64,000 bases of DNA. Source: Candidatus Heimdallarchaeota archaeon B3_Heim. GTDB lineage: Archaea > Asgardarchaeota > Heimdallarchaeia > Hodarchaeales > Hodarchaeaceae. The DNA lies in contig NJBF01000010.1 in the NCBI GenBank assembly GCA_003144275.1, forward strand, positions 27,861-91,860, read 5' to 3'. This document shows, one piece after another, positions 210-42,127 of this stretch. The position numbers were made by a program, and so were the translations under genes. Numbering within the stretch: the first letter of the stretch is position 1; each line of letters opens with the position of its first letter. The notes under the pieces were generated by a model that saw nothing but the letters and a program-made list of their open reading frames with translations, had not been told where the DNA came from and ran no database searches.

Positions 210-1424
210 ATGTCGGATGAAGATGATAAGAAGTCTTCTCCCCAGGATAGCCCAGATTATACTTCCATACTTGAGAAACAAATAGAATCAGATATTACCG
301 CCATGGAAATGGAAGAATTCTATTTAAAGGCACAAGTGGATCTAGAAAATGCGCTAACTGATGGTGGTGATTTTCTTCACATTCTAGAAGATGCCTACTC
401 CCATTCCCATACAACAGAGGAGGAAGAACAGAAGAAATTCGAACAATTTGGGTTATTTCACTCTCAAAAAACTGAAGAAATTGTAATGTTAACATGTTTC
501 AAGGATTCTGGACGTCCTTTATTTGAGATTTGTCTCTCAGATAAGGCTAGCTGCCAAACTTCCTTGAGTTTTATTTTAAATGCTATGAAAAATTACGTTC
601 GATATAAACTTGGGGAACTCATTGAAGAATTATCCTTGGAATCTCAAACAATTCATTTCTTTGTGATCGAGGAGAAATACATAATTTCAATTGTCACAAC
701 AAAACAAATCACTAGAGACAGAATCGGACAACTCGCAGTACAGATTGTTACGATCATGAAACGGTACTCCGATGAGCGATTACGGGCAAGTACTGACTTT
801 AAACAAGAAGTACTAAAAACAATAGACGGTTTTCAAGCTTCTTTTGTTAAAGAACACCATACACTTAAAATAATTCTAATCGGAGACGGTGCAGTCGGGA
901 AAACATCGATTAGAAGACAATATCTGGGAGAAGGGTTCAGGAATGATTATCAGATGACCATAGGAGCTGATTTAGCAAGTAAAGAGTCACCTGTTTTATA
1001 TTCCGGTGGAAGGCAAGTCAAATACTTAATTTGGGATCTTGCTGGTCAGCCTCGGTTTGAAGGAGTCCGAAAAGCTTATTATATGTCCGCTATGGGAGCT
1101 ATTGTGGTTTTTGATACCACTCGTGTTGAGAGTTTTCAAAACACTGTTGGGTGGATGAATGAATTTTGGAAACTTAATGGTAGGGGACCAGTTCCTATTA
1201 TTATATTAGGAAATAAAGCGGATTTACGTGATGAAGGGGTAATGGGTGTTTCTGATGCAAAAGCTAGAAAATTTGCTAGTACACTCTCTCATGTGGCTAA
1301 ACAATATAGGGGTTTTGACATTCATTATCTCCCAACAAGTGCGAAAACAGGTTTAAATATCAATTTAGCATTTGAGTTATTGGGAGAGGCAGTAATGGAC
1401 TTTTTTGAATCAGTAAAGAAATGA
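210..1424 (+). CDS. Rab/Ras-like small GTPase with an N-terminal roadblock/longin-like extension of about 200 aa
   Basis: All five G motifs are present in the C-terminal half: G1 GDGAVGKTS, switch-I YQMTIGADL (Rab-type TIGxDF), G3 WDLAGQPRF, G4 GNKADL, G5 TSAKTG. The N-terminal 200 aa have an alternating beta/alpha pattern (EIVMLTCFKDSGRPLFEICL...) that resembles a roadblock/longin fold. Confidence 0.75.
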   Translation: MSDEDDKKSSPQDSPDYTSILEKQIESDITAMEMEEFYLKAQVDLENALTDGGDFLHILEDAYSHSHTTEEEEQKKFEQFGLFHSQKTEEIVMLTCFKDSGRPLFEICLSDKASCQTSLSFILNAMKNYVRYKLGELIEELSLESQTIHFFVIEEKYIISIVTTKQITRDRIGQLAVQIVTIMKRYSDERLRASTDFKQEVLKTIDGFQASFVKEHHTLKIILIGDGAVGKTSIRRQYLGEGFRNDYQMTIGADLASKESPVLYSGGRQVKYLIWDLAGQPRFEGVRKAYYMSAMGAIVVFDTTRVESFQNTVGWMNEFWKLNGRGPVPIIILGNKADLRDEGVMGVSDAKARKFASTLSHVAKQYRGFDIHYLPTSAKTGLNINLAFELLGEAVMDFFESVKK

Positions 1425-1616
1425 TGAACTGTGGTTCAGAGCTTTAAGAGAAATTCTGGGATTATAGGCGAATCACAGTGTACTACGGGTTTTTTCTCTT
1501 CCTAATTGTGAGGATTTTTTAAGCATAGCAAGTAATGTTAACCTGACTAAGAGATAAAATGATAGCGGAGTATGCTTGAAGAAAAGTAATCTTCCTCCCT
1601 ATTTCCATAGTTTTAG

Positions 1617-2360
1617 GTGAAATTAATGGATAGAGACTTTATATTAGCGAGAGAGGCACAATTAACATATTCTAATAATGCTGCATCGGGATTCAATCCA
1701 GTAGGAGAATCTCTTGTTCGTTGGCAAGGAACATTAACTTATACAACAAACAGGGGAAGGAATATGTTCACATTTGAGATTTTCCTCCCAGAGTACTTTC
1801 CCAATGTACCTCCAGTTGTAACTGCAATTGGGTGGATGGATCATCCAAATATTGATAAAGATGGATTTATTCAGTTACGGATTCTGGATAATTGGCGAGC
1901 GGAATTTCATCTCTACCAGGTGATTATTGCTTTAAAAAATCTCATGTCTCGTGTACCACCAACCCCACGCGGAGAAACAGCTAAGTCAGTACGCGATACT
2001 ATGGTGAGAATAACTGAACCAGCAATTGAAAACAGAGATTCTAGATCAGCTGCAGAAACAAAAGCATTACGTACAGAATTAACTGCGAAGAATGCTCAAT
2101 TAACTGCAAAGGATGAAGAATTGGCCAGATTAAGAGCTAGGTCCATGATGAGCTCCGAGGAGTCATCAAAGACTCTGAGAATGAAAGTTACCGATCAACA
2201 AGTGCTAGAATCTGAACGAATTGCCATTTCTGATCTCCTATCATCATTAGAAGATCGATATACTGCTGGTGAGATCTCAATCTTTGAATATTCACGTTTA
2301 TACAAGAAATATACCAAAGAGCTTTATTTACTCCGGAAACAGTTAGAATACTTGAGCTAG
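1617..2360 (+). CDS. ESCRT-I Vps23/TSG101-like protein: UEV (catalytically inactive E2 fold) domain plus a C-terminal coiled coil
   Basis: The N-terminal ~120 aa follow the TSG101 UEV layout (beta-hairpin 'tongue', conserved ...YFPNVPPVV...HPNIDKDGFIQLRILDNW... segment, no catalytic Cys). A long heptad coiled coil follows (TELTAKNAQLTAKDEELARLRAR). The gene sits in the ESCRT cluster. Confidence 0.55.
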   Translation: MKLMDRDFILAREAQLTYSNNAASGFNPVGESLVRWQGTLTYTTNRGRNMFTFEIFLPEYFPNVPPVVTAIGWMDHPNIDKDGFIQLRILDNWRAEFHLYQVIIALKNLMSRVPPTPRGETAKSVRDTMVRITEPAIENRDSRSAAETKALRTELTAKNAQLTAKDEELARLRARSMMSSEESSKTLRMKVTDQQVLESERIAISDLLSSLEDRYTAGEISIFEYSRLYKKYTKELYLLRKQLEYLS

Positions 2361-2369
2361 GTAAAAACA

Positions 2370-2990
2370 ATGTCATTTCCTCAAAACTTATCACACAGAT
2401 GGGATCTAGAAGCCCGATTATTTGCGAATATTGGGACTCTCGATTTAATTTCACGTACTTATGATCGTGGAGAGATCGATTCGAGTACATATCATAAACA
2501 GCATAGAACCCTTCTAACTAGTATTATAGAAACACGTGCAGAGTTAGAACAGTATAATTTTGATGTTGATAGATTTATTGAAGAAGAAGGAATTAGCCAA
2601 CTTTTCCCTTCGGGTCTTTCAAAACTCAAAATGACTGAAGGAGCCGGTGATAATGCCTATAGTCGAATTGATTATTCAAGCATAAAGAAACTTCCAACAA
2701 TTGCTGCGGAGTTTGTAGCAAATGCGATTGAATTACTAGATCTTCTACATTTAGAATCAATCGCAACTGTTGATCGAGTGTTACCCTATCTTGATGAAAT
2801 TCACGATATCTTAGTTAGAGTACCAATGTATGGAAATGATCATTGGGTAACACAGGACATAAATCAGTGGATTAACTGGATGGATAAACAAAAACCAGGA
2901 CAATTATTGAAAAACAAGGAGATTAAGAAATTAGAATTACAAGGTTCTCGCTGGCTTTCTGACTTCAGAAGGGAACTAAAAAATCTATAA
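2370..2990 (+). CDS. putative ESCRT-I Vps28-like helical protein
   Basis: 206 aa, predicted all-helical, starts 10 bp downstream of the UEV gene on the same strand. Size and position match Asgard Vps28 homologues. No diagnostic motif was recognised. Confidence 0.35.
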   Translation: MSFPQNLSHRWDLEARLFANIGTLDLISRTYDRGEIDSSTYHKQHRTLLTSIIETRAELEQYNFDVDRFIEEEGISQLFPSGLSKLKMTEGAGDNAYSRIDYSSIKKLPTIAAEFVANAIELLDLLHLESIATVDRVLPYLDEIHDILVRVPMYGNDHWVTQDINQWINWMDKQKPGQLLKNKEIKKLELQGSRWLSDFRRELKNL

Positions 2991-2999
2991 GAATCGTTC

Positions 3000-4346
3000 T
3001 TATAAAAGATTAGTTTTACCAGTTCTTATAAGCAGCTCTGTCCTTTCTTCAGCAATTTTCGCTAATTCAAATTCAAATTGTTTCAAGAGTTCGAAATATT
3101 CACGACCCGCTACTTTTTTACGGCCTTCTTTTAGTTCCTGTAAGGCTCGTTTTGATGCAAGTTCATGAATGCGCAAGTCTCGTAGTCTTTCCTCTAAAAA
3201 ACCATTAACAAAATCTGGGATATTCTCTGGACTCTTACTTGGAGGCTTATTGGAGGAAGATGGGGTACTTTTATGGTTCTGAAAATTTAATGCTGCAAGG
3301 ATTTTTTCCTGATAAATTTCCGAAGACCAATCACGGAATGGTTCATTGATATACAAGTCACTTGGACGACCTAGATAACTCAACTTCAGTGAATTGAATA
3401 TCCGAATAAGATTTTGAGCATCAGACTGTATGACAAAATCTCGTTTAATAGCAGTTATTAAAAGCTTATCCCGCTTTAAAAATCCAGAGTTCTTTTTTTG
3501 TACATCCATTAGCGCTTTGGGAGAGAATTCATCACAAATGATAGTTTTATGGCTTAAAACATTAGTCCTCTTTTTCTGAAGTAATACAATCCTATCCGTT
3601 GTAATAATTAAATCAATAGTAGTCTTCCTAAAGCTATCATTATTGAGATCTAAATTTGAAAAATAGCCAATACCCAATTCACCTGGGATTAAGACGAAAA
3701 TATCGAGACATCGGGCTAGGTGTTTTCGCGTTTCATCAAATAAATCACATTTTTTCTCTACTTGTTCTATAAGGGCGGAGATAGTTTCAAGTTTCGATAC
3801 AACCGTCTGATCAAAGCTCGCTATATGTTTTTGAAATAGAGAGATTTGCAAAGATGAGTTACGAAAAGAATTCTCCGATATTGGGTGACGTACTACATTA
3901 TGGTAGATTCTTTGGAGCTTTGAAGCATATTCCTGAAATTCATTCAAAGTAAAATTTTCAATTTTCTTTGTCTCTAGAAAGATTTTATCAATCAGATTGC
4001 CAGGAATGAGAAATTGTTTGCGAAAGGAACGTAATCTTGACTCCAATTGGCCAGTTCGTTTTAAGAGGATAACAGGACGATATCCTACGTGCTTGAGAGA
4101 TCGTTTAAGGACAAAAATTTCTTCTAATAAGTCCGCTTTTCCATTTTTAATGTGGTCAAATGCTTCAATATTTGGTGATCCACAGGAACACTTGAGTTGG
4201 GAACCAGTCATAAGAGATCGTGTTGCGCATTGTTGACAAAAAGTAGCACCGCAATCTAAACACTTGTGTACCTCCGAAGAAACGAGTGCTGAACCACAAA
4301 AGGAACAGTAACCCGTCGACTCAGAAGAAGACGAACTAAGACCCAA
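3000..4346 (-). CDS. zinc-ribbon protein with a long helical/PH-like C-terminal region, unknown function
   Basis: The N-terminus carries two Cys4 zinc ribbons (CSFCGS...CLDCGATFCQQC...CSCGSP). The remainder is helical with a beta-rich middle segment. It is convergent with the Vps28-like gene inside the ESCRT locus. Confidence 0.5.
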   Translation of the reverse strand: MGLSSSSSESTGYCSFCGSALVSSEVHKCLDCGATFCQQCATRSLMTGSQLKCSCGSPNIEAFDHIKNGKADLLEEIFVLKRSLKHVGYRPVILLKRTGQLESRLRSFRKQFLIPGNLIDKIFLETKKIENFTLNEFQEYASKLQRIYHNVVRHPISENSFRNSSLQISLFQKHIASFDQTVVSKLETISALIEQVEKKCDLFDETRKHLARCLDIFVLIPGELGIGYFSNLDLNNDSFRKTTIDLIITTDRIVLLQKKRTNVLSHKTIICDEFSPKALMDVQKKNSGFLKRDKLLITAIKRDFVIQSDAQNLIRIFNSLKLSYLGRPSDLYINEPFRDWSSEIYQEKILAALNFQNHKSTPSSSNKPPSKSPENIPDFVNGFLEERLRDLRIHELASKRALQELKEGRKKVAGREYFELLKQFEFELAKIAEERTELLIRTGKTNLL

Positions 4347-4687
4347 AGACGTTCCCTATCTATCATAGAATGAATGTAGATTTTTAAGTAAATATAACAT
4401 TACAGAAAGATGACAAGAAAGGAACAAGTAGAGGAGGAAAAGTTCTAGCGCTATTTTGAATTTATCATTTACTAAGAACCTGAAATTCCAATTCTTCCAG
4501 AAAAAGCAATATCCTCCTCATAAATCCCATTTTTCATCTTCCTACTCTCCATAGAGAACTGTTTCTTGACGAAAAGAATAAACAAATTCTCTACTCTGAT
4601 TTCTAGTATCGTATTGTAAAAAATTATAAATAAAGAACTTTGAAGTCTAATTGAACTTAACATAATTAAATCTCGAGGAACAATAAG

Positions 4688-5407
4688 ATGGGCCTTAGAC
4701 GTATAGAAGAGAAAATAACTCAGGAAGCGGCAATGAAGGTAAAGGGTAGTCAATTGGCCCTCTTGTCTCTCAATGAGATGAGTAAAAAGATAAGAAATTT
4801 ACACAAAGAACTTCAGAAGCTAGAATCTCAATATAAATCTGACATTAAGAAGAATCCCGACCTAGCCCAGAAGGTTATGAAACTAAGGGAGGAGCTAGGA
4901 CTTCCTCTTGCAATTGGAATATATGATGTAGGTAAAAAACCTTCATTCAAATCACGACTGCAGGGAAATGATGAATATATTAACTATTTAGGACTAAGAA
5001 TTATAGAGATTGGTAAACAGATACGGAATCATACAGGGGGTATCTTAAGCGTATCAGAATTAATCTTGAAACTTAATGATGAAAGTAAAGGAATTGTGGT
5101 TTCTATTTCAGACGTCAATAACGCTTTGGAACTTTTAACTTCGAATGGATTAATTCATCAGATACGAACACTCGTAGGAATGAAAATTATCGAGTTTATT
5201 GACCCAGAACTGACACAAGATCATCAACGTATACTTGAGTTGGCAGCACAGGCTAATGGCCAGCTTTCAATGACTGAATTAGTTCAAAAATCAACTTGGA
5301 CAATAGAACGAGTAGAACGATCTATAGAAGTTTTGATCAATAAAAAAGTAGCAATCAAATCTAATACCTTAGATGGCATATTAATATCATTTCCAGGTGT
5401 AGGATAG
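4688..5407 (+). CDS. ESCRT-II Vps22/EAP30-like protein (tandem winged-helix)
   Basis: 239 aa with an N-terminal helical hairpin followed by two winged-helix-like units, which is the EAP30 size and architecture. It lies directly upstream of two ESCRT-III genes and Vps4. Confidence 0.5.
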   Translation: MGLRRIEEKITQEAAMKVKGSQLALLSLNEMSKKIRNLHKELQKLESQYKSDIKKNPDLAQKVMKLREELGLPLAIGIYDVGKKPSFKSRLQGNDEYINYLGLRIIEIGKQIRNHTGGILSVSELILKLNDESKGIVVSISDVNNALELLTSNGLIHQIRTLVGMKIIEFIDPELTQDHQRILELAAQANGQLSMTELVQKSTWTIERVERSIEVLINKKVAIKSNTLDGILISFPGVG

Positions 5408-5606
5408 TTCTCTTACATTACAATACAGTCATTTAGAAATAATTTTATGCTTAAAAAGGTGTAAAACATTCTCCTATTCTCTCTGAATACTCTTCTGGTA
5501 ACATTTAGAGGAGCACTATAGTAAGTCTTAAGAAGAACTCCTTGTTTACCTAGCTTAAGATATTTAACTGAAAGAAGATACTCATTTCAGATAAGCTAGA
5601 TGAGAG

Positions 5607-6287
5607 TTGAAAATACAAGTGAAACGACTTAAAGGGTTTTTAACGGGATCGAAACCATCTTCATCAACTGAAACAAAAGCGAAGTTAAAAAGAACCATAA
5701 ATCAAATGGAAATAAAGGTAAAAAACTATTCAAGGCAATCTGATGAGCAATATGAGTTAGCACGTCGACTGTTAAAATCTGGGAACAAACCTGGAGCTCA
5801 ACAAGCTCTGAAGCGACGTGAGCTATATTTGACCCAGACAACGAACACTCATAGCAAGATAGCAAACTTACAACGTATCATTGAAACGCTTGATATTTCT
5901 GCAGATAACGTTACTTTAACAGAGACACTAGCGCAGGCACAAATTGCAATTGATAGCAATGTTGAAGCAGCTTCGCCTGAAAGGACAGAAGAAGTAATGA
6001 TGTCCTTAGAGGATTCCATAGAAATGGTTTCAGATATGGAGGACTCTCTTACAGATACCTCGATAACTGAAATCGGAATGGATGTTGAAGCAGATGATCG
6101 AATATCTATGCAAATGGCGGAATTAGAAGCGGAATTATCATCGGGTTCTCTTCCAGCAAGTGAAACAAGTGTTTCTGCAACACCTAGTTCCCCAATATCA
6201 GAAAACACCGCTGGAAAAAAACGTGAAGCAGACAAAAAGAAATTAGATGAGATGCGGAAACAGATTGAAGAAGGTTTGAGGTCATAA
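5607..6287 (+). CDS. ESCRT-III / Snf7-family protein (Vps20/32/60-like)
   Basis: Basic N-terminal helical hairpin (KAKLKRTINQMEIKVKNY...ARRLLKSGNKPGAQQALKRRELY) and an acidic C-terminal half (EDSIEMVSDMEDSL...ELEAELSS), as in Snf7/CHMP proteins. Tandem with a second paralogue and Vps4. Confidence 0.6.
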   Translation: MKIQVKRLKGFLTGSKPSSSTETKAKLKRTINQMEIKVKNYSRQSDEQYELARRLLKSGNKPGAQQALKRRELYLTQTTNTHSKIANLQRIIETLDISADNVTLTETLAQAQIAIDSNVEAASPERTEEVMMSLEDSIEMVSDMEDSLTDTSITEIGMDVEADDRISMQMAELEAELSSGSLPASETSVSATPSSPISENTAGKKREADKKKLDEMRKQIEEGLRS

Positions 6288-6289
6288 AC

Positions 6290-6904
6290 ATGGTTTTTGA
6301 TAAATTTGGTCAATGGCTTAAAGGTGGAGGAAGTGGAGCCAGTTCTACACGGAAGTGGATCGTTCGACTTCGAATGGTTGAAAAACGAATGTTACGTCAA
6401 CGGAAAAAATTGCTAAAAGAAGAAAAAAATATGTTAAAAGAAGTTGAGAAATCCATAGAAGATGGTGATATGTCAACTGCTAGACTATTAGCAAAGGATG
6501 TAGCCAAAAACCGTAATATGGCCCGCGCATGCCAACAAATGGCTAGCAGGGTAAAAGGGATCAAGTTTAAGTTAGAACAAGCAGCTGCTACACAAGCAAT
6601 TGGAAAGGATTTGAAAGGACTCGTACGCACACTTCATACAATGAATGCCGAATTAAAAATTCCACAGCTTGAAGGTGTTCTTCAACAAATGGAAATCGAA
6701 ACAGAGCGAGTTGATATTGCAACAGAAGCAATGGATGAAGGATTTGAGATGATGACAACCGATGGAGAAGAAGATGAAGTGGTTGAAAAAATCCTTGGAG
6801 AGATAAGCGCGTCTAAAGCAGCTACAGCTGATTTTGGTCTTCCTTCTCCCGATATACGGTCCCAAGAATTACAAAAAGAACTAGAAAAAATAAAGAAAAG
6901 CTGA
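6290..6904 (+). CDS. ESCRT-III / Snf7-family protein (Vps2/24/46-like) with a C-terminal MIM-like helix
   Basis: Shows the CHMP-like polarity (basic N-terminal, acidic C-terminal) and a C-terminal amphipathic helix (DIRSQELQKELEKIKK) resembling a MIM1 motif that would bind the Vps4 MIT domain. Start is 2 bp after the preceding ESCRT-III stop. Confidence 0.65.
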   Translation: MVFDKFGQWLKGGGSGASSTRKWIVRLRMVEKRMLRQRKKLLKEEKNMLKEVEKSIEDGDMSTARLLAKDVAKNRNMARACQQMASRVKGIKFKLEQAAATQAIGKDLKGLVRTLHTMNAELKIPQLEGVLQQMEIETERVDIATEAMDEGFEMMTTDGEEDEVVEKILGEISASKAATADFGLPSPDIRSQELQKELEKIKKS

Positions 6905-6956
6905 CTACAAATCACTTTTCTTCTTAAGTAGGTAAGTATGTTTACGTGGTGATACC

Positions 6957-8099
6957 ATGGGTTCTCCTTTATTTGAAGCAGCTAAAAAGAATGCTAGCTT
7001 GGCTTATAAGCTGGATCAAAGTGGACAGACTCAGCAAGCAGTCAAATATTATGTATCTGCAGCTGAACAGTTACAAAAACTCATTAATTTTACTGACGAT
7101 TCAAATATGAAAAATCTCTATTATCACAAAGCAATGGAATATATTTTGCGTGTGAAGGAAATTCGAGGAATAATCGAACCATCTGAAACCCCGACCCCTT
7201 CTTCCGCTCCATCCCCAAAAAGTGACGAAATTTCCGATGCTATTTCAAGTGTTATCGTTCGAGAGAAACCAAACGTGAAGTGGGAAGACGTTGCAGGAAT
7301 GGAGGAGGCTAAACGTGCATTAAGAGAAGCCGTCATCTTACCTATGTCTCGACCTGATTTATTCAAAGGTGCACGTAAACCATGGAAAGGAATTTTGATG
7401 TATGGTCCCCCTGGTTGTGGGAAAACTTATCTATGTAAGGCGGTAGCTTCTGAAGTGGAATCAACCTTTTTTTCAGTAAGTGCAGCGAATTTAATAAGTA
7501 AATGGTTGGGGGAGTCAGAAAAGCTCGTAAATGAACTCTATGAAAGAGCAGTAGAAGAAGCCCCGTCCATAATTTTCTTTGACGAAATCGATGCTTTGGC
7601 AGGAACACGAGGCGGGAGTTCTGAAGGAGAGGCAATGCGAAGAGTGAAAACACAACTATTACAAGCAGTAGAAGGTTTTGCTACTGGTGATGAACTACTG
7701 GTCACTATAGGAGCAACGAATACGCCTTGGGATATCGATGCTGCAATGCGTAGACGTTTTGAACGTCGTGTTTATGTAACACTCCCAGCAAGGGAAGCAA
7801 GGGAGGTAATGTTTTCAATTCATACAAAAGGGATTCCCATGGGTGCAGATGTTGATTTTAAAGCATTAGCTGAAATTACAGGCGGATATACGGCTGCAGA
7901 TATTGCTTTAGTGTGTCGTGAATCCTTGATGCAACCGATTCGTGAACTGGATGCAGAAGGGGCCCTAACCGATATGACTGTACAAGTACGAGCTCCGAAA
8001 GCAGTTGATTTTCATAATGCCATGATGCATATTCGTCCCTCAGTCGCTCCAGATGAGCTTGCGCGATATGATAAATGGCGCGATAAATTTGGAGGGTAG
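6957..8099 (+). CDS. vps4: Vps4-like AAA+ ATPase (MIT domain + AAA cassette)
   Basis: N-terminal three-helix MIT-like domain (AAKKNASLAYKLDQSGQTQQAVKYYVSAAEQLQKL), Walker A GPPGCGKTY, Walker B IIFFDEIDAL, second region of homology ATNTPWDIDAAMRRRF, and a C-terminal Vps4 helix. Confidence 0.9.
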   Translation: MGSPLFEAAKKNASLAYKLDQSGQTQQAVKYYVSAAEQLQKLINFTDDSNMKNLYYHKAMEYILRVKEIRGIIEPSETPTPSSAPSPKSDEISDAISSVIVREKPNVKWEDVAGMEEAKRALREAVILPMSRPDLFKGARKPWKGILMYGPPGCGKTYLCKAVASEVESTFFSVSAANLISKWLGESEKLVNELYERAVEEAPSIIFFDEIDALAGTRGGSSEGEAMRRVKTQLLQAVEGFATGDELLVTIGATNTPWDIDAAMRRRFERRVYVTLPAREAREVMFSIHTKGIPMGADVDFKALAEITGGYTAADIALVCRESLMQPIRELDAEGALTDMTVQVRAPKAVDFHNAMMHIRPSVAPDELARYDKWRDKFGG

Positions 8100-8141
8100 A
8101 GAAACCTCATCCATCTTTACCAATTCATGAGCTGTTAATGG

Positions 8142-8915
8142 ATGGCCGAATTACAACGAAAAAAGGAAAAGGTTGACAAGAAAAAAACTTCAGTTGATGT
8201 ACTTGAAGATGTACTTCAGCAAGTAACAGCAGACAAACCGAAATCAACTAAGATAGAAGCTCCAAAAATCAAACAAAAACCTTTAACGAATACTTTACCT
8301 TATTCCCAGTTTCATAAATCGCAATCAAAGGTCGAACAAACGATAACTGTGAAGTCCGAACGAATTTCATTAGCTGAGCTAAAACCTGGTACCGTTCATC
8401 CTAATGTAAAACCGATTTTACCTGGTTGGGTTACAAAGCCATGGCGATGGATGATTCCAGAGGATCCTGAATTAAAACAGCAGTGGTTGCTTACCTGGGG
8501 GGATTTCTTACTTGCATTTGCACGTGTGTTAAACCAACATATACTCGATCTCCAGGAAGTTAGCCTAGTCTACCCATTTCAAAATGGGGTACTTCATAAA
8601 AAGCTGTCAATTCCACAGTTAAAAGCTATTTCTGAGTATTTAATTGAGCAAGAAAATGCCTCATGGTGGGATACAGACGAAACACAACTTAGGGTATACT
8701 GGAAGACCCTCAATTCTTTTGCCGAGGAAATTTTCAATTATTCCTTCCAAAACGGATTTGAAATGATCACACTTTATGATATGGTCAAAATGAATCAGTC
8801 TTGGTCATCCCTTCCACCTAAGGATCTTGCTATTATTATGAAACTCATGGTAAAGTCAAAGAAAGCTACATGGGCGGACTCAGAACAGAAAACAATAGAA
8901 TTTGTTTTTTTTTAA
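8142..8915 (+). CDS. hypothetical protein at the end of the ESCRT locus (possible Vps25-like winged-helix protein)
   Basis: 257 aa, same strand and 42 bp downstream of vps4. Basic N-terminal tail followed by mixed alpha/beta. No motif recognised; the Vps25 suggestion rests on synteny only. Confidence 0.3.
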   Translation: MAELQRKKEKVDKKKTSVDVLEDVLQQVTADKPKSTKIEAPKIKQKPLTNTLPYSQFHKSQSKVEQTITVKSERISLAELKPGTVHPNVKPILPGWVTKPWRWMIPEDPELKQQWLLTWGDFLLAFARVLNQHILDLQEVSLVYPFQNGVLHKKLSIPQLKAISEYLIEQENASWWDTDETQLRVYWKTLNSFAEEIFNYSFQNGFEMITLYDMVKMNQSWSSLPPKDLAIIMKLMVKSKKATWADSEQKTIEFVFF

Positions 8916-12138: not shown

Positions 12139-12909
12139 TTGAACAAATCAAATGGAAATTCTTTCAGCTACTTTCATAAGGTAGCAGAAGTAAAAATAAA
12201 GTCCCCTACTGTCGTTATCCAAGGGTTACCTGGCATGGGGCTAATTGGGAAGATTGCCGCTAATTTCTTAATCGATCAGTATGATGGTGTTGAAATAGCC
12301 CGAATATACAGTTCATTTTTCCCCCCCGTTGTCCAAATTGACAATGAACAGGGGATTGGTCAATTAGCTCGTATGGAAATTTATGCCATAACCAAATCGA
12401 CTCCGAACTTATTAATTTTGACAGGAGATGCACAACCTCACGATATAGGTATTATTCAAGTACTAAACGAAGTACTTGATTTCGTCATTGAACTGAAAGC
12501 TGAAACGGTTGTGTGTTTAGGTGGATTAAGGGCATTGGAAGAAGGACCAGAAGTTGCTGCATTCGGATATAATGAAGAAACTATGAAATGGTTAGAGGAG
12601 TATGATATCACTCCATTAAAGGGAGGAGAAATAACAGGAGCGGTTGGTGTATTCTCGGCCTTAGCAGCTGAAAAAGGGTTACGAAGTTTCGGATTACTTG
12701 GAAAATTAACGCTTGTCGGTACTGACCCGTTAGCCAGCAAAAATCTGTTGAAACACTTAGCAAAACTCTTCTCACTGGATTATAAGTATGAAGATTTGGA
12801 TGGAATCATAGAGGAAGCCGTTCAGAAAAATGACTTACTTCACAAAGCTGAGGAAGCAGAAAGCTCATCAGAGGATGAAAGCTCCCGAGGACCAAGTTAT
12901 TACATTTAA
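12139..12909 (+). CDS. PAC2-family protein (proteasome assembly chaperone-like, COG1938)
   Basis: N-terminal VVIQGLPGMGLIGKIAANFLI matches the conserved GxPGxGxVG motif of archaeal PAC2/PbaB-type proteins. ~250 aa with an acidic C-terminal tail. Confidence 0.55.
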   Translation: MNKSNGNSFSYFHKVAEVKIKSPTVVIQGLPGMGLIGKIAANFLIDQYDGVEIARIYSSFFPPVVQIDNEQGIGQLARMEIYAITKSTPNLLILTGDAQPHDIGIIQVLNEVLDFVIELKAETVVCLGGLRALEEGPEVAAFGYNEETMKWLEEYDITPLKGGEITGAVGVFSALAAEKGLRSFGLLGKLTLVGTDPLASKNLLKHLAKLFSLDYKYEDLDGIIEEAVQKNDLLHKAEEAESSSEDESSRGPSYYI

Positions 12910-21113: not shown

Positions 21114-22658
21114 TTATATCTCAATTTCAACGGTAGGCTTTTTTTTCTGTTCTGTTTTTGATGCCAGTCGCGCTCGTGCCTGAACCCAGGTACGTAATGC
21201 CGTAATATCTTCCTTCATCAATCGGGATAGTGGAACCATATTTTCCAAGGCATTCATGATATCTGTGGTTTCGACTTCACGATCCTCAGAAAAAGCATCG
21301 AACATAGCTGTGATGAGGGTTTGTTCTATTTCTGCTCCGGAATAGCCTTTACTTAACCCAACCAGTGTTCTCATATCAAATTTTTCTGTTTCACGCCCTC
21401 TTTTCTTAATATGGATAGAGAAGATATCTTCACGTTCCTTTGGGGAAGGTAAGTCTAAAAAGAAGATTTCATCAAATCTACCTTTTCTCATGAGTTCAGG
21501 AGGCAATCGCTGGACATTATTGGCGGTTGCGATTACAAATACTGGTTTTTTCTTCTCTTGAAGCCAAGTAATAAAAGTCCCAAACACTCTGCTTGTTGTT
21601 CCTGCATCCGTAAGATTACTGGACTGTACTCCCGCAAATCCTTTCTCTATTTCATCAATCCATAGAATAGAAGGAGAAACAGATTCAGCTGTTTTTATAG
21701 CGTTCCGAATATTCTGTTCACTCTCACCAACAACTCCTCCAAACACCTTTCCTACATCAAATCGTAGTAAGGGTAATTTCCATAATGAAGCTACTGCTTG
21801 GGCAGTAAGCGATTTTCCTGTTCCAGGAATGCCAATCAACATCAGACCTGAGGGAAAGGGTAATCCATACTCTCTTGCTTTTTCAGTAAAGCCTCGATTA
21901 CGGATGGTTAACCATTCTTTTAAGTGTTCTAATCCTCCAATATTATCAAAGTGTTCGCTAGAATGATAATATTCCAGTATTCCTGATTTACGAATAATTT
22001 GTTCTTTTTCTTGGATTATAATTGCAGGGTCAAACCGTTTTACTTCGACAAGTGATTTGGCAAAGACATTTTCTGCCTCATCCACAGTAAGTCCAAGAGC
22101 TGATTTTAGGACAGCTTCCCTTTCTTCCTCGGTTAAACTGATATCAACTCTAGGATTCATTTTTAATGGTTCAATAATTCCTTCTAGAACAGTATCCAAT
22201 AGCTCTAAGGTTGGAAAATCAAAGTCGACAACATTAATCATTTTTTCTAATTCAATTGGTACTTCCAAAACTGGAGAAACAAGAATACATGTTTTTTTCA
22301 AATTATTAAGGTGAATTTTGAGGTCACGAAGTTTTCGAATAACCACTGGATCTTTCATAAAAGGATGAAAGTCTTTTAACATGAAGATCGCGGGCCTCGG
22401 GTAATCGGTAATGAATGTTAACGCAGCAAAAGGATCCACTGCTTCCCCATCCAATTTTTTACCTAGAAAATCCGAAAACCCTTCTGTCGTACTCCAAATG
22501 ATCAATTGTTTCTCTGATTTTACAGCAAGAGTATTCAACATAACAGCCACCCTTTCCTCTTCCCAAGTGGTGATATAGATGAGAGAGTAACGAGCACGAA
22601 TTAAAATATCAACCTTTTTTTGTTGATCCTCACTAACCTTTTTCATAGAGGTCACCAA
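21114..22658 (-). CDS. Ycf46-like AAA+ ATPase
   Basis: 514 aa with a ~250-aa N-terminal domain, then Walker A GIPGTGKSL and Walker B ILWIDEIEKGF, with sensor-1/arginine-finger regions. Length and layout match the Ycf46 family as I recall it. Confidence 0.7.
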   Translation of the reverse strand: MVTSMKKVSEDQQKKVDILIRARYSLIYITTWEEERVAVMLNTLAVKSEKQLIIWSTTEGFSDFLGKKLDGEAVDPFAALTFITDYPRPAIFMLKDFHPFMKDPVVIRKLRDLKIHLNNLKKTCILVSPVLEVPIELEKMINVVDFDFPTLELLDTVLEGIIEPLKMNPRVDISLTEEEREAVLKSALGLTVDEAENVFAKSLVEVKRFDPAIIIQEKEQIIRKSGILEYYHSSEHFDNIGGLEHLKEWLTIRNRGFTEKAREYGLPFPSGLMLIGIPGTGKSLTAQAVASLWKLPLLRFDVGKVFGGVVGESEQNIRNAIKTAESVSPSILWIDEIEKGFAGVQSSNLTDAGTTSRVFGTFITWLQEKKKPVFVIATANNVQRLPPELMRKGRFDEIFFLDLPSPKEREDIFSIHIKKRGRETEKFDMRTLVGLSKGYSGAEIEQTLITAMFDAFSEDREVETTDIMNALENMVPLSRLMKEDITALRTWVQARARLASKTEQKKKPTVEIEI

Positions 22659-22671
22659 TGTTCAGTATATG

Positions 22672-22890
22672 TTATCGTCTAGCTGTAACCCGAGTGGTGG
22701 CCTCTACTGGACGTTGATAGTAATCTCTCTTGAAGTCTCTATTTGTAACCTCGCCGAGGGCCTCATCAAGAAATCTGGTTGTTTCTGTACAGGATTTTCC
22801 TTTTACCCCATTCACTGTATATGAAATATCCCCTTTTTCATCAATAGTGATTTCTAATTCTATATTGTCAGCACTCATTGACCTACCCAC
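22672..22890 (-). CDS. small conserved hypothetical protein (DUF2997-like), co-transcribed with the AAA ATPase
   Basis: 72 aa. Its start overlaps the stop of the upstream DUF1257-like ORF by 16 bp, and it ends 14 bp before the AAA gene start. Confidence 0.4.
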   Translation of the reverse strand: MGRSMSADNIELEITIDEKGDISYTVNGVKGKSCTETTRFLDEALGEVTNRDFKRDYYQRPVEATTRVTARR

Positions 22891-23285
22891 CCTCGTTTAA
22901 CAACTAGTAATTTAATTTCCCCAATTTCATTGATATACCTTGATTTAATGCGATATCCCTTTTTCCTAAGTTCACCCAAAACTTTGGTGACTGCGTATTC
23001 CTTCTGGATTTCATTTGCAAATTGCCGTCGGTTTTTTCCAATCGCTGCTGCTGCGCCATACCAATCTGCTAAAATTTGATATGACGAATCTTTCGCTTTA
23101 ATGAAACCTACATCAAATTCTCCAGTTGTTTTGATAACAATATCCCCTTTTCGGGTTCTTCGATTATAACCTCTTATCGTCGAGTTCTCTTCTACTTCAT
23201 ATTGTAGATTTTCAAGGGTTTTCAATAGACAGTTTCTGTCTGTGATCTTTGTTTTAAGTTTTGTAAAATGTGACATGATTTTCAT
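22875..23285 (-). CDS. conserved hypothetical protein (DUF1257/Ycf35-like)
   Basis: 136 aa, first gene of a three-gene co-directional unit (this gene, the 72-aa ORF, the AAA ATPase). From memory, this family is the small protein encoded next to ycf46 in cyanobacterial operons. Confidence 0.4.
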   Translation of the reverse strand: MKIMSHFTKLKTKITDRNCLLKTLENLQYEVEENSTIRGYNRRTRKGDIVIKTTGEFDVGFIKAKDSSYQILADWYGAAAAIGKNRRQFANEIQKEYAVTKVLGELRKKGYRIKSRYINEIGEIKLLVVKRGWVGQ

Positions 23286-39170: not shown

Positions 39171-40619
39171 ATGCTCAAACCAGTTGAGTTAATCATGGCT
39201 AATATTACAGCTCCTATAAATAAACGTTCAACCCGCGGGAACATATTATTATGGTCTATGTATGATTTGGCCAATACAGTGTTTTCTATGGGGATAGTTT
39301 CCCTAACAGTGATTAAATTTTTTACTTTACTTGGTATGCAGCAAGGATTAAGCTGGAGTGAATCAAATTTCCTTGCTGGATTGGCTGGTTCAATATCTAC
39401 GATATTTGTGGCTTTAACAATACCTTTTATGGGAGCTATAAGCGACAAAAGTGGAGAACGAAAAAGCAAAGTTGTCCTTTTAGGGGTTCTTTGTATACTA
39501 TCTACAGGAATTGTTTATTTCTTTGTTAATTTTTGGATTGCTTTTTTCCTATTTATCATCGCTAATATTACTTATCAGTGGGGGAACCTATTCTATGATG
39601 CCATGATTCCTCATATTTGTGCCGAAGATGAAATTGGTAAAGTTTCAGCAACTGGAGTGGCTATTGGATATGTAGGATCATTTATTGCTATTGCAATTCT
39701 ATTTATATTGCCATTTGTCGGAATACTAGATCATACTCCATTACGAGAGGATGGAGTCCCATTAAGCGCTCCAATTGAAGAAGGAGGAATACCTATTTCC
39801 TTTGACCAGATTGTTTTAGGTGAGTTTCAGTGGATGTGGTTAATTTGCGCACTTGCTTTTCTTATTACAGCAATACCTTTTCTCTGGGTAACTGAAAGAA
39901 CGAAGAAAGAAACTCACTCCACTAGTAGTGTAGTAAAGAGTGCGTTTTCTGAACTAAAAATAACGACCAGAGAAGTAGTTACTTATCGCGATATGTTATT
40001 TTTCATGATTGGTTGGATTTTAACGGTAGATGTAGTTAATACAATTATTGCATACATGCTACCTGCAGCAGAGGATGCTTGGGGACTCTCAGGTACAATG
40101 CCCCTTATACTAATTTTCGTAGGGGTTATCGGAGCCAGCGTATTGACCTTAGCAATTGGTCCAGTATCTGATAAACAGGGGCCTAAAATGGCATTCCTTA
40201 TAGTAGGAGTAGGATACTTATTCACCCTTGTAATAGCGGTTTTAGCTGATACAAATGATCCTAGCTTAGGTGGAGTTTGGCTTGTTTTACTATTTATTGC
40301 AGCATTAATTATTGGTGGAGCTCAAGGTTCAACTTGGGTCGCCAATAGACAGATGGTAATTGAATTAGCCCCTGAAGATAAAGTGGGACAATACTTCGGG
40401 TTTAGCAAATTAGTCAGTAAAGGTGGCAGTGCTATAGGTATGTCCATTTTTGCAGCAGTATTATCAATTACTCAGGAGATAACTGGAAGTATACCAACTT
40501 CGTATCGTGTAGGATTCATCGTTCTTGGTGTAATATATATTATTGGACTGTTTTTCTTAATGTTAGTTAAGGATCATCACAAAGACTATTTAGCTGGTAA
40601 AAGAGCTCCCTTTGACTGA
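39171..40619 (+). CDS. MFS-type transporter
   Basis: 482 aa with 12 TM helices. Confidence 0.7.
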   Translation: MLKPVELIMANITAPINKRSTRGNILLWSMYDLANTVFSMGIVSLTVIKFFTLLGMQQGLSWSESNFLAGLAGSISTIFVALTIPFMGAISDKSGERKSKVVLLGVLCILSTGIVYFFVNFWIAFFLFIIANITYQWGNLFYDAMIPHICAEDEIGKVSATGVAIGYVGSFIAIAILFILPFVGILDHTPLREDGVPLSAPIEEGGIPISFDQIVLGEFQWMWLICALAFLITAIPFLWVTERTKKETHSTSSVVKSAFSELKITTREVVTYRDMLFFMIGWILTVDVVNTIIAYMLPAAEDAWGLSGTMPLILIFVGVIGASVLTLAIGPVSDKQGPKMAFLIVGVGYLFTLVIAVLADTNDPSLGGVWLVLLFIAALIIGGAQGSTWVANRQMVIELAPEDKVGQYFGFSKLVSKGGSAIGMSIFAAVLSITQEITGSIPTSYRVGFIVLGVIYIIGLFFLMLVKDHHKDYLAGKRAPFD

Positions 40620-41389: not shown

Positions 41390-42127
41390 TTGAGTGAAAA
41401 AATCATGTTAAGAGATAAAGACAAATCATTTCTTAAATACGAAGTGACTGGTGCCCCAGCGTTCGCAGTGGTACGAATTACGATAGATAATCCAGGTCAA
41501 AAAGTTCGAGCCGAAGGTGGATCCATGGTATACATGGATGGACATGTTAACATGGAAACTAAATCAGCTGGTGGAGTTATGCGTGGTTTGAAGAGGAAAT
41601 TTTCTGGCGAATCAATGTTCCAAAACTTTTTTTCGATTCCTGATGGTTCTCCACCAGGAATGGTAGCTTTTGCTCATGGAGCTCCAGGGGATATTGTTCA
41701 CCTTCATTTAGCACAAGGAGAAGAATGGATTCTTAGTCGAGACGCATATATCTGTGGAACAACTAGTGTCGCAGTAACGTCGAAATTTGGAGGATTCAAG
41801 GGAGTTTTGGGTGGTGAAGGTCTAATGCTGACCAAAATCATGGCTGAAGCTGACGGGGATGTGTGGATAGGGGGGTATGGATATGTTGAACGACATGAAT
41901 TAGAACCAGATCAGGAGTTTGTCGTGGATAACGGAGTTATGATGGCATATCAAGCAGGCATGCAACATAAAGTTTCAAAAGTAGGTGGTCGGAAGAGTTT
42001 TATGCTCGGTGGAGAAGGAGTGGTGATTCGTTATACTGGTCCCGGTGTTGTGTATACACAGAATCGTGAGATTGGATTATTAGCTTCCTTACTTCTCCCA
42101 TATCTCCCAGTGGGTCGTAGTAGCTAA
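41390..42127 (+). CDS. AIM24/DUF124-family protein
   Basis: 245 aa, Gly-rich beta-rich repeats (GGEGLMLTKI...GGEGVVIRYTGPG) typical of the TIGR00266/AIM24 family. Confidence 0.5.
   Translation: MSEKIMLRDKDKSFLKYEVTGAPAFAVVRITIDNPGQKVRAEGGSMVYMDGHVNMETKSAGGVMRGLKRKFSGESMFQNFFSIPDGSPPGMVAFAHGAPGDIVHLHLAQGEEWILSRDAYICGTTSVAVTSKFGGFKGVLGGEGLMLTKIMAEADGDVWIGGYGYVERHELEPDQEFVVDNGVMMAYQAGMQHKVSKVGGRKSFMLGGEGVVIRYTGPGVVYTQNREIGLLASLLLPYLPVGRSS

Follow-up and report, generated by a model that had tools for sequence, protein, structure and literature searches.

The nine open reading frames predicted at positions 210 to 8915 of the window, that is, the whole 64,000-nucleotide stretch of DNA analyzed, were all present at their coordinates and were judged to be real genes (Table 1), with intergenic gaps of 9, 2, 52 and 42 nt within the cluster. 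Domain assignments were judged by the curated gathering thresholds of Pfam, which all named families passed apart from the UEV model, scoring 23 bits where 27 are required. Seven out of eight proteins looked up were identical in sequence to GenBank entries within the range PWI48654.1 to PWI48663.1 of Candidatus Heimdallarchaeota archaeon B3_Heim, confirming the original attribution of the DNA to Asgard archaea; the product label of all of these cluster proteins is 'hypothetical protein'.

Table 1. Genes and intergenic region of the ESCRT cluster, with positions counted from the first base of the window.
Feature	Position	Strand	Evidence	GenBank
Longin-Rab-like small GTPase, 404 aa	210..1424	+	Ras 5e-36 (aa 220-395)	PWI48654.1
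UEV-Vps23-like ESCRT-I subunit, 244 aa	1626..2360	+	UQ_con 7.8e-14, UEV 7.8e-5	PWI48655.1
Vps28, 206 aa, full length	2370..2990	+	PF03997 8.7e-12	PWI48656.1 (exact match)
Zn-ribbon / three long helices / PH-like domain / C-terminal helical hairpin protein (Znr protein), 448 aa, TTG start	3000..4346	-	architecture	
Intergenic region separating the divergently oriented Znr gene and vps22, 341 bp	4347..4687	.	gap computed	
Vps22/SNF8-like ESCRT-II subunit (EAP30 family), 239 aa	4688..5407	+	PF04157 9e-20	PWI48659.1
ESCRT-IIIB (Vps20/32/60-Snf7 class), 222 aa from most likely start GTG 5619	5619..6287	+	Snf7 1.2e-10	
ESCRT-IIIA (Vps2/24/46-CHMP1/2/3 class), 204 aa	6290..6904	+	Snf7 1.4e-16	PWI48661.1
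Vps4 AAA ATPase, 380 aa, MIT + AAA core + Vps4_C	6957..8099	+	Pfam	PWI48662.1
Vps25 ESCRT-II subunit, 257 aa	8142..8915	+	PF05871 3e-16	PWI48663.1

The cluster itself is already known, since it has been deposited in GenBank and was drawn and analyzed in the literature. The ESCRT cluster of the B3_Heim genome is named in the legend of Fig. 1C of Hatano et al. 2022 (Nat Commun 13:3398; PMC9192718) and represents the same DNA, without any sequence difference. The gene composition and order, originally put forward as lineage-specific details worth documenting, are already covered by Hatano et al. 2022, Lu et al. 2023 (bioRxiv 10.1101/2023.07.25.550441), and Makarova et al. 2024 (PMC10936438). New here are the identification of the N-terminal domain of the GTPase as longin rather than roadblock, the deep conservation of the linkage between the Znr gene and ESCRT-I, the clade-specific position of the GTPase, and the corrections to two start codons (UEV gene and ESCRT-IIIB).

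In the Vps23-like protein, an E2-fold domain lacking the catalytic Cys is followed by a coiled-coil stalk and, at the C-terminus, by a hairpin resembling a steadiness box. The mechanical ORF of its gene begins at GTG 1617; the start is most likely ATG 1626, in agreement with the orthologues, and the protein read from there is identical to the GenBank entry. An active ubiquitin-conjugating enzyme, instead of a ubiquitin-binding UEV protein, might be proposed on the grounds that the general E2 model passes its cut-off and outscores the UEV model (51.9 versus 23 bits), that the top PDB matches are active E2s, e.g., UbcH5 and Ubc13, and that the HPN motif is kept. Such an activity is, however, highly improbable: Gln replaces the catalytic Cys in 'HPNIDKDGFIQLRIL' and the whole protein contains no Cys, so that a thioester intermediate is impossible. 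Three orthologues are likewise free of Cys throughout the protein, and 0 out of 25 aligned family members carry Cys at the catalytic position. The UEV domain of the original prediction was thereby borne out, and its small helical ESCRT-I partner proved to be a full-length Vps28 (aa 15-190 matching positions 2-175 of 188 in the PF03997 profile), encoded 9 nt downstream of the UEV gene. The Vps23_core model matched nine of the 25 UEV family members (best 1.6e-5); for the protein encoded in the window it gave no match, and a search of the PDB with a profile of the C-terminal region of this protein returned no Vps23/TSG101 chain. In their legend, Hatano et al. 2022 described the B3_Heim Vps23 homologue with the words 'only possess E2/UEV domains' (PMC9192718).

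Convergent with vps28, at a distance of 9 nt, lies the Znr gene, for which no Pfam family scored above its cut-off and only weak Zn-finger matches were obtained. Its product as read here has no exact match in the protein collection, so that the annotation probably uses a different start or divides the gene. The protein has the architecture of the published candidate ESCRT-I component Znr_CC_PH_SB (cog.011556), which was described by Makarova et al. 2024, mBio (PMC10936438): the modules follow one another in the same sequence (Zn-binding, coiled-coil helices, PH, C-terminal helical hairpin), and both the published members and the B3_Heim gene are located among ESCRT genes. This likeness was seen in the architecture, and by sequence the protein is no more than a candidate member. 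The Lokiarchaeum member comprises ~650 aa with three Zn ribbons, whereas the B3_Heim protein features one 8-Cys module in 448 aa, and the family profile recovered only ~20 relatives among 1.84 billion representatives, none of them Loki-type. The hairpin of the Znr protein aligns in register with the C-terminal hairpin of the UEV protein (hhalign E 3.6e-4, probability 37%), which is only suggestive of a relationship to the steadiness box. The divergent intergenic region beyond the Znr gene presumably harbors putative promoters in both directions.

The EAP30-like protein could be specified as Vps22/SNF8-like by its PDB matches to human SNF8 (2zme_A, 2e-17) and yeast Vps22 (9e-8); a Vps36-like identity was rejected, as the PDB search gave no Vps36 match. 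The candidate Vps25 following vps4 was confirmed by Pfam as well as by PDB entry 7pb9 'Tandem WH domains of Vps25' (4e-14) and human VPS25 (2e-6), its tandem winged-helix core (aa about 100-256) being preceded by a basic N-terminal extension of ~100 aa. For ESCRT-IIIB, the mechanical ORF begins at TTG 5607, whereas comparison with orthologues places the start most likely at GTG 5619 ('MKRLKGF...'). The two Snf7-family paralogues expected for the locus both pass the Snf7 profile and could be assigned to classes, the first one matching 'Heimdallarchaeota AB_125 ESCRT-IIIB' (9ftl, 3e-29) followed by yeast Snf7, and the second one, ESCRT-IIIA, matching CHMP2A (6e-15), CHMP1B (2e-13), and CHMP3. 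ESCRT-IIIA begins with an amphipathic motif, F3-x2-F6-x2-W9, comparable to F2, F5, and W8 of 'Hofund' (Espadas 2025), and ends with a conserved C-terminal helix '...DIRSQELQKELEKIKK', the C-terminus being identical or nearly so among orthologues. As predicted, Vps4 is a MIT-AAA protein, with MIT (1.2e-7), AAA (1.3e-39), AAA_lid_3, and Vps4_C (6e-6) above their cut-offs and intact catalytic motifs (Walker A GPPGCGKT, Walker B IIFFDE, pore loop KWLG). Accordingly, the prediction of a eukaryotic-type ESCRT locus is sustained by Pfam matches and, for several of the products, by PDB matches, including those of the two ORFs on which it had depended together with the Snf7 pair (1617-2360 with UQ_con 7.8e-14 and 4688-5407 with EAP30 9e-20).

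The genes follow the same order in four further Hodarchaeales/Heimdall genomes (loci L001-L004), with protein identities of 56-94% for eight out of nine genes and 60-88% for the Znr protein; this conservation is far beyond chance. In the syntenic genomes, the cluster does not end at what corresponds to window base 1 but runs on leftward through genes for Yip1, a ThiF/E1-like protein, ubiquitin, a KaiC-like ATPase, and another small GTPase; in L001-L004, ubiquitin, ThiF, and Yip1 lie directly upstream of the GTPase gene. In L006 and L007, which are more distant, linkage of the modules Znr-Vps28-UEV and Vps22-III-III-Vps4-Vps25 is likewise seen. Neither an E2 nor an E3 gene was found in or beside the cluster within the window. 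Heimdallarchaeota LC_3 (supplementary neighbourhood table of Makarova et al. 2024) shares the module Vps22-Vps20-Vps24-Vps4-Vps25 and the pair of Vps28 and E2/Vps23-core with B3_Heim. However, its two ESCRT modules are located on separate contigs instead of in a single 8.7-kb block as in B3_Heim, and its distant Znr homologue OLS27508.1 adjoins no ESCRT gene.

Yip1 is a Rab-interacting family in eukaryotes. The GTPase, which adjoins it in the syntenic genomes L001-L004, is composed in B3_Heim of a helical leader of low confidence (aa 17-79), followed by a longin domain (aa 91-183) and, at aa 215-401, by a Rab-like G domain with intact G motifs; it lacks a C-terminal Cys. Of the original description as a Rab-type GTPase with a roadblock/longin-like N-terminal domain, the Rab and longin folds were retained and the roadblock identity was rejected. 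In L006 and L007, the GTPase is missing from the place that it would occupy after Yip1 and before the UEV gene, and in the window it is separated from the UEV gene by 192 nt, so that it may be a neighbor and not a component, functionally unlinked to ESCRT, with the locus proper beginning at the UEV gene. We consider this a real possibility, if not the favored one. In addition to the above, the N-terminal half of the GTPase diverges rapidly (43% identity versus 69-73% for the G domain), and small GTPases are very numerous in Asgard genomes (PMC10307638). Against this, its place between Yip1 and the UEV gene is strictly kept in five genomes including that of the window, with protein identity falling as low as 56%, and Lu et al. 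2023, in their section 5, count a GTPase as part of the Hodarchaeia cluster. That section groups ubiquitin, Yip1, Rab-like GTPase, and UEV-Vps23 exactly as in L001-L004 and the left end of the window; it speaks of a 'Rab-like GTPase' only and mentions neither the longin domain nor the Zn-ribbon/PH gene. In Hatano et al. 2022 (PMC9192718), the GTPase is not discussed (word count 0). As a clade-specific accessory acting with Yip1, the GTPase would probably contribute to membrane targeting or regulation in a nucleotide-dependent manner.

In yeast, the ESCRT machinery consists of Vps23-Vps28-Vps37-Mvb12, Vps22-Vps36-Vps25, Vps20/Snf7/Vps24/Vps2, and Vps4. Compared to the eukaryotic system, UEV, Vps28, Vps22, Vps25, B-type and A-type ESCRT-III, and the MIT-AAA Vps4 are all recognizable by sequence in B3_Heim, whereas ESCRT-0, a recognizable Vps37 or Mvb12, and Vps36 are absent from the cluster. 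Further differences are the PH/GLUE-like fold residing on a separate protein without winged-helix domains, the presence of only two ESCRT-III paralogues, the N-terminal extension of Vps25, and the location of all genes in one prokaryotic cluster. Eukaryote-like gene content of this kind could also stem from eukaryotic contamination or a chimeric bin, but the chance of such an artefact is negligible: the genes are intron-free and tightly packed between archaeal housekeeping genes (uS2, RpoN, RadA, TFB, FttA), and the same locus occurs in the closed Asgard chromosomes CP070695 and CP070760.

The CdvABC system of TACK archaea has an ESCRT-III-type polymer and a MIT-AAA ATPase in common with the cluster, and ESCRT-III/Vps4 serve division in these archaea (PMC10936438). 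The locus might thus essentially encode a Cdv-type division machine, in which ESCRT-III and Vps4 perform a Sulfolobus-type cytokinesis, with the ESCRT-I/II-like proteins acting in recruitment to the division site, without ubiquitin-dependent sorting. The best NCBIfam match of Vps4 is indeed CdvC (7.7e-90), the CdvA coiled-coil model is weakly matched by two UEV-family members (0.0014), and a relationship between Vps23 and CdvA was proposed by Lu et al. 2023. Nevertheless, this explanation is unlikely, as the equivalog models are missed by a wide margin (CdvC 301 versus a cut-off of 650, CdvB 16 versus 370), no CdvA gene is present in the cluster, and both ESCRT-III paralogues fall into the eukaryote-type A and B classes. 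Moreover, the cluster contains ESCRT-I and ESCRT-II subunits, with ubiquitin and an E1-like gene adjoining in syntenic genomes, all of which are absent from Cdv. Positions 210-8915 very probably represent a complete eukaryote-like ubiquitin-ESCRT membrane-remodelling cluster of a Hodarchaeales Asgard archaeon.

How its products may cooperate can be proposed from homologues (AB_125, Odin, Loki, and other Asgard archaea), from which all interaction steps are carried over. The Cys-less UEV domain would bind ubiquitin on cargo, and the stalk and hairpin of the UEV protein would assemble with Vps28 to form ESCRT-I, which the hairpin of the Znr protein probably joins; the PH-like and Zn modules of the latter may give membrane and/or ubiquitin contacts, as the GLUE domain of Vps36 does in eukaryotes. 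Vps28 would pass to ESCRT-II, composed of Vps22, a putative homodimer as in the Heimdall AB_125 homologue, and Vps25, which would nucleate ESCRT-IIIB on the membrane. For homologues, interactions were reported for Ub-UEV, Vps23-Vps28, ESCRT-I-Vps22, Vps25-ESCRT-IIIB, and Vps4-ESCRT-III (PMC9192718), and UEV-ubiquitin affinities are among the contents of Lu et al. 2023. ESCRT-IIIA would be recruited by ESCRT-IIIB, as seen for homologous ESCRT-IIIB arrays (PMC11804906), and its aromatic amphipathic N-terminal helix would enter the bilayer, in keeping with fission by homologous ESCRT-IIIA and Vps4 via this helix (bioRxiv 10.1101/2025.11.28.690958). Finally, the MIT domain of Vps4 would bind the C-terminal helices of ESCRT-III, and ATP use would remodel the polymer, leading to constriction and fission. 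In all likelihood, the B3_Heim cluster thus encodes a complete ESCRT pathway of the eukaryotic type, in a version with two paralogues.

The original prediction was a compact eukaryote-like ESCRT cluster with an EAP30-like ESCRT-II gene, two Snf7-family paralogues, a MIT-AAA Vps4 followed by a candidate Vps25, and a gene set extending well beyond the Cdv system of other archaea. It was correct and well read from the sequence. All nine co-localised ORFs were found at positions 210–8915, eight on the forward strand and one on the reverse strand, and Pfam families were assigned using the curated cut-offs, the UEV model being the sole match that stayed below its threshold. Since UQ_con, EAP30 and, for both paralogues, Snf7 were matched, the case named as refuting, a locus with neither a UEV/E2 nor an EAP30 protein and with failing Snf7 models, does not apply, and the observation of the locus is confirmed.

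Features of the ESCRT locus and of selected genes elsewhere in the window (nucleotide positions refer to the window; aa positions to the Zn-ribbon/PH/hairpin protein)
Feature	Position	Strand	Evidence
Longin-Rab-like GTPase	210–1424	+	Pfam Ras, above curated cut-off
UEV protein	1617–2360	+	Pfam UQ_con above cut-off; UEV model sub-threshold
Vps28	2370–2990	+	Pfam VPS28, near full length, above cut-off
Zn-ribbon/PH/hairpin (Znr) protein	3000–4346	-	
Zn-binding module, eight conserved Cys	aa 14–55		AlphaFold2 model
Three long helices	aa 69–212		AlphaFold2 model
Beta-sandwich with helix cap	aa 225–325		AlphaFold2 model
C-terminal helical hairpin (predicted)	aa 378–442		AlphaFold2 model
Vps22	4688–5407	+	Pfam EAP30, above cut-off
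ESCRT-IIIB	5607–6287	+	Pfam Snf7, above cut-off
ESCRT-IIIA	6290–6904	+	Pfam Snf7, above cut-off
Vps4	6957–8099	+	Pfam MIT, AAA, AAA_lid_3 and Vps4_C, above cut-offs
Vps25	8142–8915	+	Pfam ESCRT-II, above cut-off
PAC2 proteasome-assembly chaperone	12139–12909	+	3e-31
514-aa AAA ATPase	21114–22658	-	AAA, 5.5e-30
DUF1257 gene	22875–23285	-	
Atg22-like MFS transporter	39171–40619	+	PF11700, 1e-24
AIM24 gene	41390–42127	+	1e-56
1865-aa ORF	43615–49212	+	no Pfam or NCBIfam match
gcvT	49216–50364	-	
JAB1/MPN-domain gene	55982–56878	-	PF01398, 4e-14

The UEV protein matched UQ_con with 7.8e-14 and the Pfam UEV model with 7.8e-5 (23 bits, cut-off 27). In the HMMER alignment, its stretch HPNIDKDGFIQLRIL was placed opposite the E2 active-site stretch HPNINKNGVICLDIL, with Gln at the position of the catalytic Cys. 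The protein and three of its orthologues are entirely devoid of cysteine, and the catalytic column lacks Cys in all 25 family members, the most distant of which has 39% identity, as expected for a UEV domain, i.e., an E2 fold lacking the catalytic cysteine. The rival assumption that this E2-like protein represents an active E2 therefore cannot hold. Ubiquitin binding has been established for the UEVs of AB_125, Odin and other Asgard archaea, as described in PMC9192718 and bioRxiv 10.1101/2023.07.25.550441. The gene most probably starts at ATG 1626, the mechanical ORF start at 1617 lying too far upstream, and the resulting 244-aa product is 100% identical to PWI48655.1 (CEE45_05440) of B3_Heim.

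The C-terminal 110 residues of the UEV protein are helical and conserved, with LEDRYTAGEISIFEYSRLYKKYTKELY at their end. The Vps23 core model PF09454 gave no match to the window protein at E ≤ 1 and was matched by 9 of the 25 family members (best 1.6e-5), while single-sequence and profile searches of this region against the PDB returned no Vps23/TSG101 chain; the label 'Vps23-like' is thus supported at the family level only. The family alignment also revealed a conserved motif, L-x-D/E-R-Y-x-x-G-E-I-S-x-x-E-Y, at the C-terminus (positions 2200–2360), which weakly matched the SHOCT model in 7 of the 25 members and whose best, non-significant PDB match (8whn_A, 'Ribophorin 1 superfamily protein', E 0.21) covered the same motif; it may represent a short helical-hairpin motif common beyond ESCRT-I. 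The neighbouring Vps28 matched PF03997 with 45.6 bits (cut-off 24.5), its residues 15–190 covering profile positions 2–175 of 188, and its only PDB match was a weak one to the Vps28 C-terminal domain (0.31).

The convergently oriented Znr protein was modelled with AlphaFold2 from 33 family members (pLDDT 76.6), and the model divides into the four parts listed in the table. Its hairpin aligned in register with the C-terminal profile of the UEV-Vps23-like family (hhalign probability 36.7%, E 3.6e-4, 63 columns), which is no more than suggestive of a relationship between the two hairpins. The architecture of Zn ribbon(s), coiled coil and PH domain is shared with Znr_CC_PH_SB (cog.011556), a family proposed as an Asgard ESCRT-I component by Makarova et al. 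2024 (PMC10936438). Sequence homology to the Lokiarchaeum-type members of this family was not found: a profile search of 1.84 billion representatives yielded 20 relatives, all ≤565 aa, and no Loki-type relative of 650 aa, a result that the sensitivity of HMMER may limit. Named profile matches belonged to Hodarchaeales, Heimdall LC_3 or one MAG labelled Thorarchaeota, and the labels of the homologues were nearly all Hodarchaeales, Hodarchaeota or Heimdallarchaeota. Among the eight cluster proteins looked up, the Znr product (448 aa from TTG) was the sole one without an exact deposited sequence; it was probably deposited with another start or split, because two tags, CEE45_05450 and CEE45_05455, lie between vps28 and vps22.

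Both ESCRT-II genes were assigned above the curated cut-offs. Vps22 matched PF04157 with 71.7 bits (cut-off 26.8), and its PDB matches were all SNF8/Vps22 chains (2e-17, 6e-15 and 9e-8), with no Vps36 chain among them, placing the protein closer to Vps22/SNF8 than to Vps36; a GLUE (split PH) domain fused to EAP30-type winged helices, as in Vps36, was not found. Vps25, a member of the tandem winged-helix family (PF05871, 60.3 bits, cut-off 27), matched Odinarchaeal Vps25 (7PB9, 4e-14) and human VPS25 (2e-6) and carries a basic N-terminal extension of ~100 residues.

The two Snf7 proteins reached 41.7 bits (5607–6287) and 61.0 bits (6290–6904) against PF03357 (cut-off 27.3). The former matched the solved ESCRT-IIIB of Heimdall AB_125 (3e-29), followed by yeast Snf7, and the latter CHMP2A, CHMP1B and CHMP3. 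These PDB sequence matches point to the B class (Vps20/32/60) and the A class (Vps2/24/46), respectively, and hence to the gene order B then A. For ESCRT-IIIB, GTG 5619 is the probable start, giving 'MKRLKGF' as in the orthologues, in place of the mechanical start at 5607. ESCRT-IIIA begins with MVFDKFGQWLK, in which F3, F6 and W9 show the same spacing as F2, F5 and W8 of the 'Hofund' N-terminal helix reported to drive fission in a Heimdall ESCRT-IIIA (bioRxiv 10.1101/2025.11.28.690958). At their C-termini, both proteins carry well-conserved amphipathic helices, KKKLDEMRKQIEEGLRS and DIRSQELQKELEKIKKS, which vary little or not at all among the orthologues and plausibly represent MIT-interaction motifs.

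Vps4 matched MIT (32.1 bits, cut-off 30), AAA (136 bits) and Vps4_C (26.6 bits, cut-off 21.3), and its Walker A, Walker B and KWLG pore loop are intact, as in a single-AAA-cassette Vps4. The CdvABC system, too, has an ESCRT-III-type polymer and a MIT-AAA ATPase, and one of the four rivals is a division-only, Cdv-like role of the locus. This role is not reasonably likely: Pfam revealed no CdvA among the nine genes, and the NCBIfam scores of Vps4 against CdvC (301.5, equivalog cut-off 650) and of the second Snf7 protein against CdvB (16.3, cut-off 370) fell far below their cut-offs.

The GTPase heading the locus possesses a Ras-superfamily G domain with motifs G1–G5 and is closest to Rabs. It ends in '...DFFESVKK', has Cys residues only at 96, 108 and 115, and is designated 'Rab-like' rather than canonical Rab because the C-terminal prenylation cysteine is absent. 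Its N-terminus had been predicted as a roadblock/longin-like domain; the longin half of this proposal was retained, as the beta2-alpha-beta3-alpha(-alpha) fold matched known longin domains, and the roadblock half was dropped, neither the fold nor the Robl_LC7 family being recovered.

To compare gene neighbourhoods, loci were fetched around Znr homologues in GCA_016839815, the closed chromosomes CP070695 and CP070760, and Ca. Hodarchaeum mangrovi. Gene order does not differ among the first three and reads GTPase-UEV-Vps28-Znr(opposite strand)-Vps22-IIIB-IIIA-Vps4-Vps25-uS2-RpoN-RimK-RadA; the Ca. Hodarchaeum mangrovi contig starts inside the Znr gene, leaving only the Znr-Vps28-UEV-GTPase side visible. 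Protein identities to the closed genomes ranged from 56–58% (GTPase, Vps25) up to 79–87% (ESCRT-IIIA, ESCRT-IIIB, Vps4). Upstream of the GTPase, all four genomes carry (PAP2)-Yip1-ThiF/E1-like-ubiquitin-KaiC-like ATPase-Arf/Rag-like GTPase (L001:14333–19440, L002:14477–19202, L003:14324–17891 and L004:4134–9166), the second small GTPase being ~188 aa long. The functional neighbourhood would therefore extend to about twice the 210–8915 span. Because the window begins 209 bp before the GTPase gene, the ubiquitin/Yip1 half lies outside it, and the B3_Heim side left of base 1 is known from the syntenic genomes alone. Lu et al. 2023 (bioRxiv 10.1101/2023.07.25.550441) already describe a Hodarchaeia UEV-Vps23 cluster including ubiquitin, Yip1 and a Rab-like GTPase.

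In two more distant genomes (L006 and L007), the Znr homologue likewise converges on Vps28-UEV and adjoins Vps22/ESCRT-III/Vps4/Vps25, Yip1, ThiF and ubiquitin, and no GTPase gene is located between Yip1 and UEV. Together with the four syntenic loci, this arrangement indicates that the linkage between Znr and ESCRT-I is old and that only the window's clade has the GTPase gene at this position. That the GTPase is a mere genomic neighbour of the ESCRT genes has a chance somewhat short of even, and it is the only one of the four rivals that stays reasonably likely. In Heimdall LC_3, the ESCRT modules lie on different contigs and no ESCRT gene adjoins the distant Znr homologue, whereas the window cluster forms one block. 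An EF-2 gene (L005:13276–15762, L006:7189–9657, L007:2287–4719) adjoins Vps25 in the two distant loci and lies near the LC_3 Znr homologue; in the window's clade, uS2-RpoN-RimK-RadA follows Vps25 in its place, so that the cluster's right end marks a boundary of rearrangement.

The best-supported reading of the locus is a eukaryote-like ESCRT relay, for which domain identities and motif integrity were taken from the window and interactions from homologues in other Asgard archaea, as reported in PMC9192718, PMC11804906, bioRxiv 10.1101/2025.11.28.690958 and bioRxiv 10.1101/2023.07.25.550441. By analogy, the UEV domain would recognise ubiquitin; the Vps23-like protein, Vps28 and probably the Znr protein would assemble ESCRT-I, which would hand over to ESCRT-II (Vps22 and Vps25). 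ESCRT-IIIB would then nucleate on the membrane and recruit ESCRT-IIIA, which would insert into it, and remodelling and fission would be driven by Vps4. A rather improbable extension is that the GTPase, Yip1 (just outside the window) and the Znr protein constitute an archaeal ESCRT front end. This nucleotide-switched membrane-identity/cargo-recognition module would recruit ESCRT-I, doing the job of Rab5/7-marked endosomal membranes, ESCRT-0 and the Vps36 GLUE domain in eukaryotes, with the Znr hairpin as the missing third (Vps37-like) subunit of the ESCRT-I headpiece.

The remaining window contains ordinary archaeal housekeeping and metabolism genes; contamination as the source of the region is not reasonably likely. 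Scans of the whole 64-kb window (GC content 33–41%) revealed neither tRNA genes nor any Rfam family scoring above the gathering threshold, and a naive search for TATA boxes in front of the genes was uninformative. The 514-aa AAA ATPase, considered as a divergent Vps4 paralogue, was rejected as a generic classical AAA (CDC48-D2-like) without MIT or Vps4_C; its N-terminal ~230 aa have no family assignment, a DUF1257 gene lies nearby, and in LC_3, too, a 532-aa AAA gene is found close to the Znr homologue. The 1865-aa ORF adjoining gcvT is homologous to a 2172-aa LC_3 ORF (L005:472–6990, -), also located beside gcvT (BLASTP 2e-47 and 7e-30, 23–27% identity over >1000 residues), and encodes a conserved giant protein, apparently of helical repeats. 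The JAB1/MPN-domain gene, ~47 kb from the ESCRT cluster, represents a candidate deubiquitinase; the window ORFs scanned showed neither an E2 nor a RING E3 gene. Eukaryote-style Pfam names were also obtained for the Atg22-like transporter, AIM24 and PAC2.

Exact-sequence matches placed the GTPase, UEV, Vps28, Vps22, ESCRT-IIIA, Vps4 and Vps25 at PWI48654.1–PWI48663.1 (CEE45_05435–05480) on a 93,451-bp contig of B3_Heim, where all seven carry the product name 'hypothetical protein', and the legend to Fig. 1C of Hatano et al. 2022 (PMC9192718) names the ESCRT cluster of this genome. The sequence and gene arrangement are therefore already public and published, and no new kind of system is represented. 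The present analysis adds that the N-terminal domain of the GTPase is longin and not roadblock, maps the domains of the Znr protein, shows how deep its linkage to ESCRT-I reaches and that the position of the GTPase is clade-specific, notes that the left edge of the window cuts the cluster, and corrects two start codons.

Asgard ESCRT clusters are central to the evidence that a ubiquitin-coupled membrane-remodelling machinery was already present in the eukaryotic host lineage, and the present locus offers a well-defined gene set for reconstitution. Its under-studied parts are the longin-Rab fusion and the Znr protein; if either proves to be a real ESCRT partner, this would be relevant to the question of how membranes recruited ESCRT-I at a time when ESCRT-0 and Vps36 did not yet exist.
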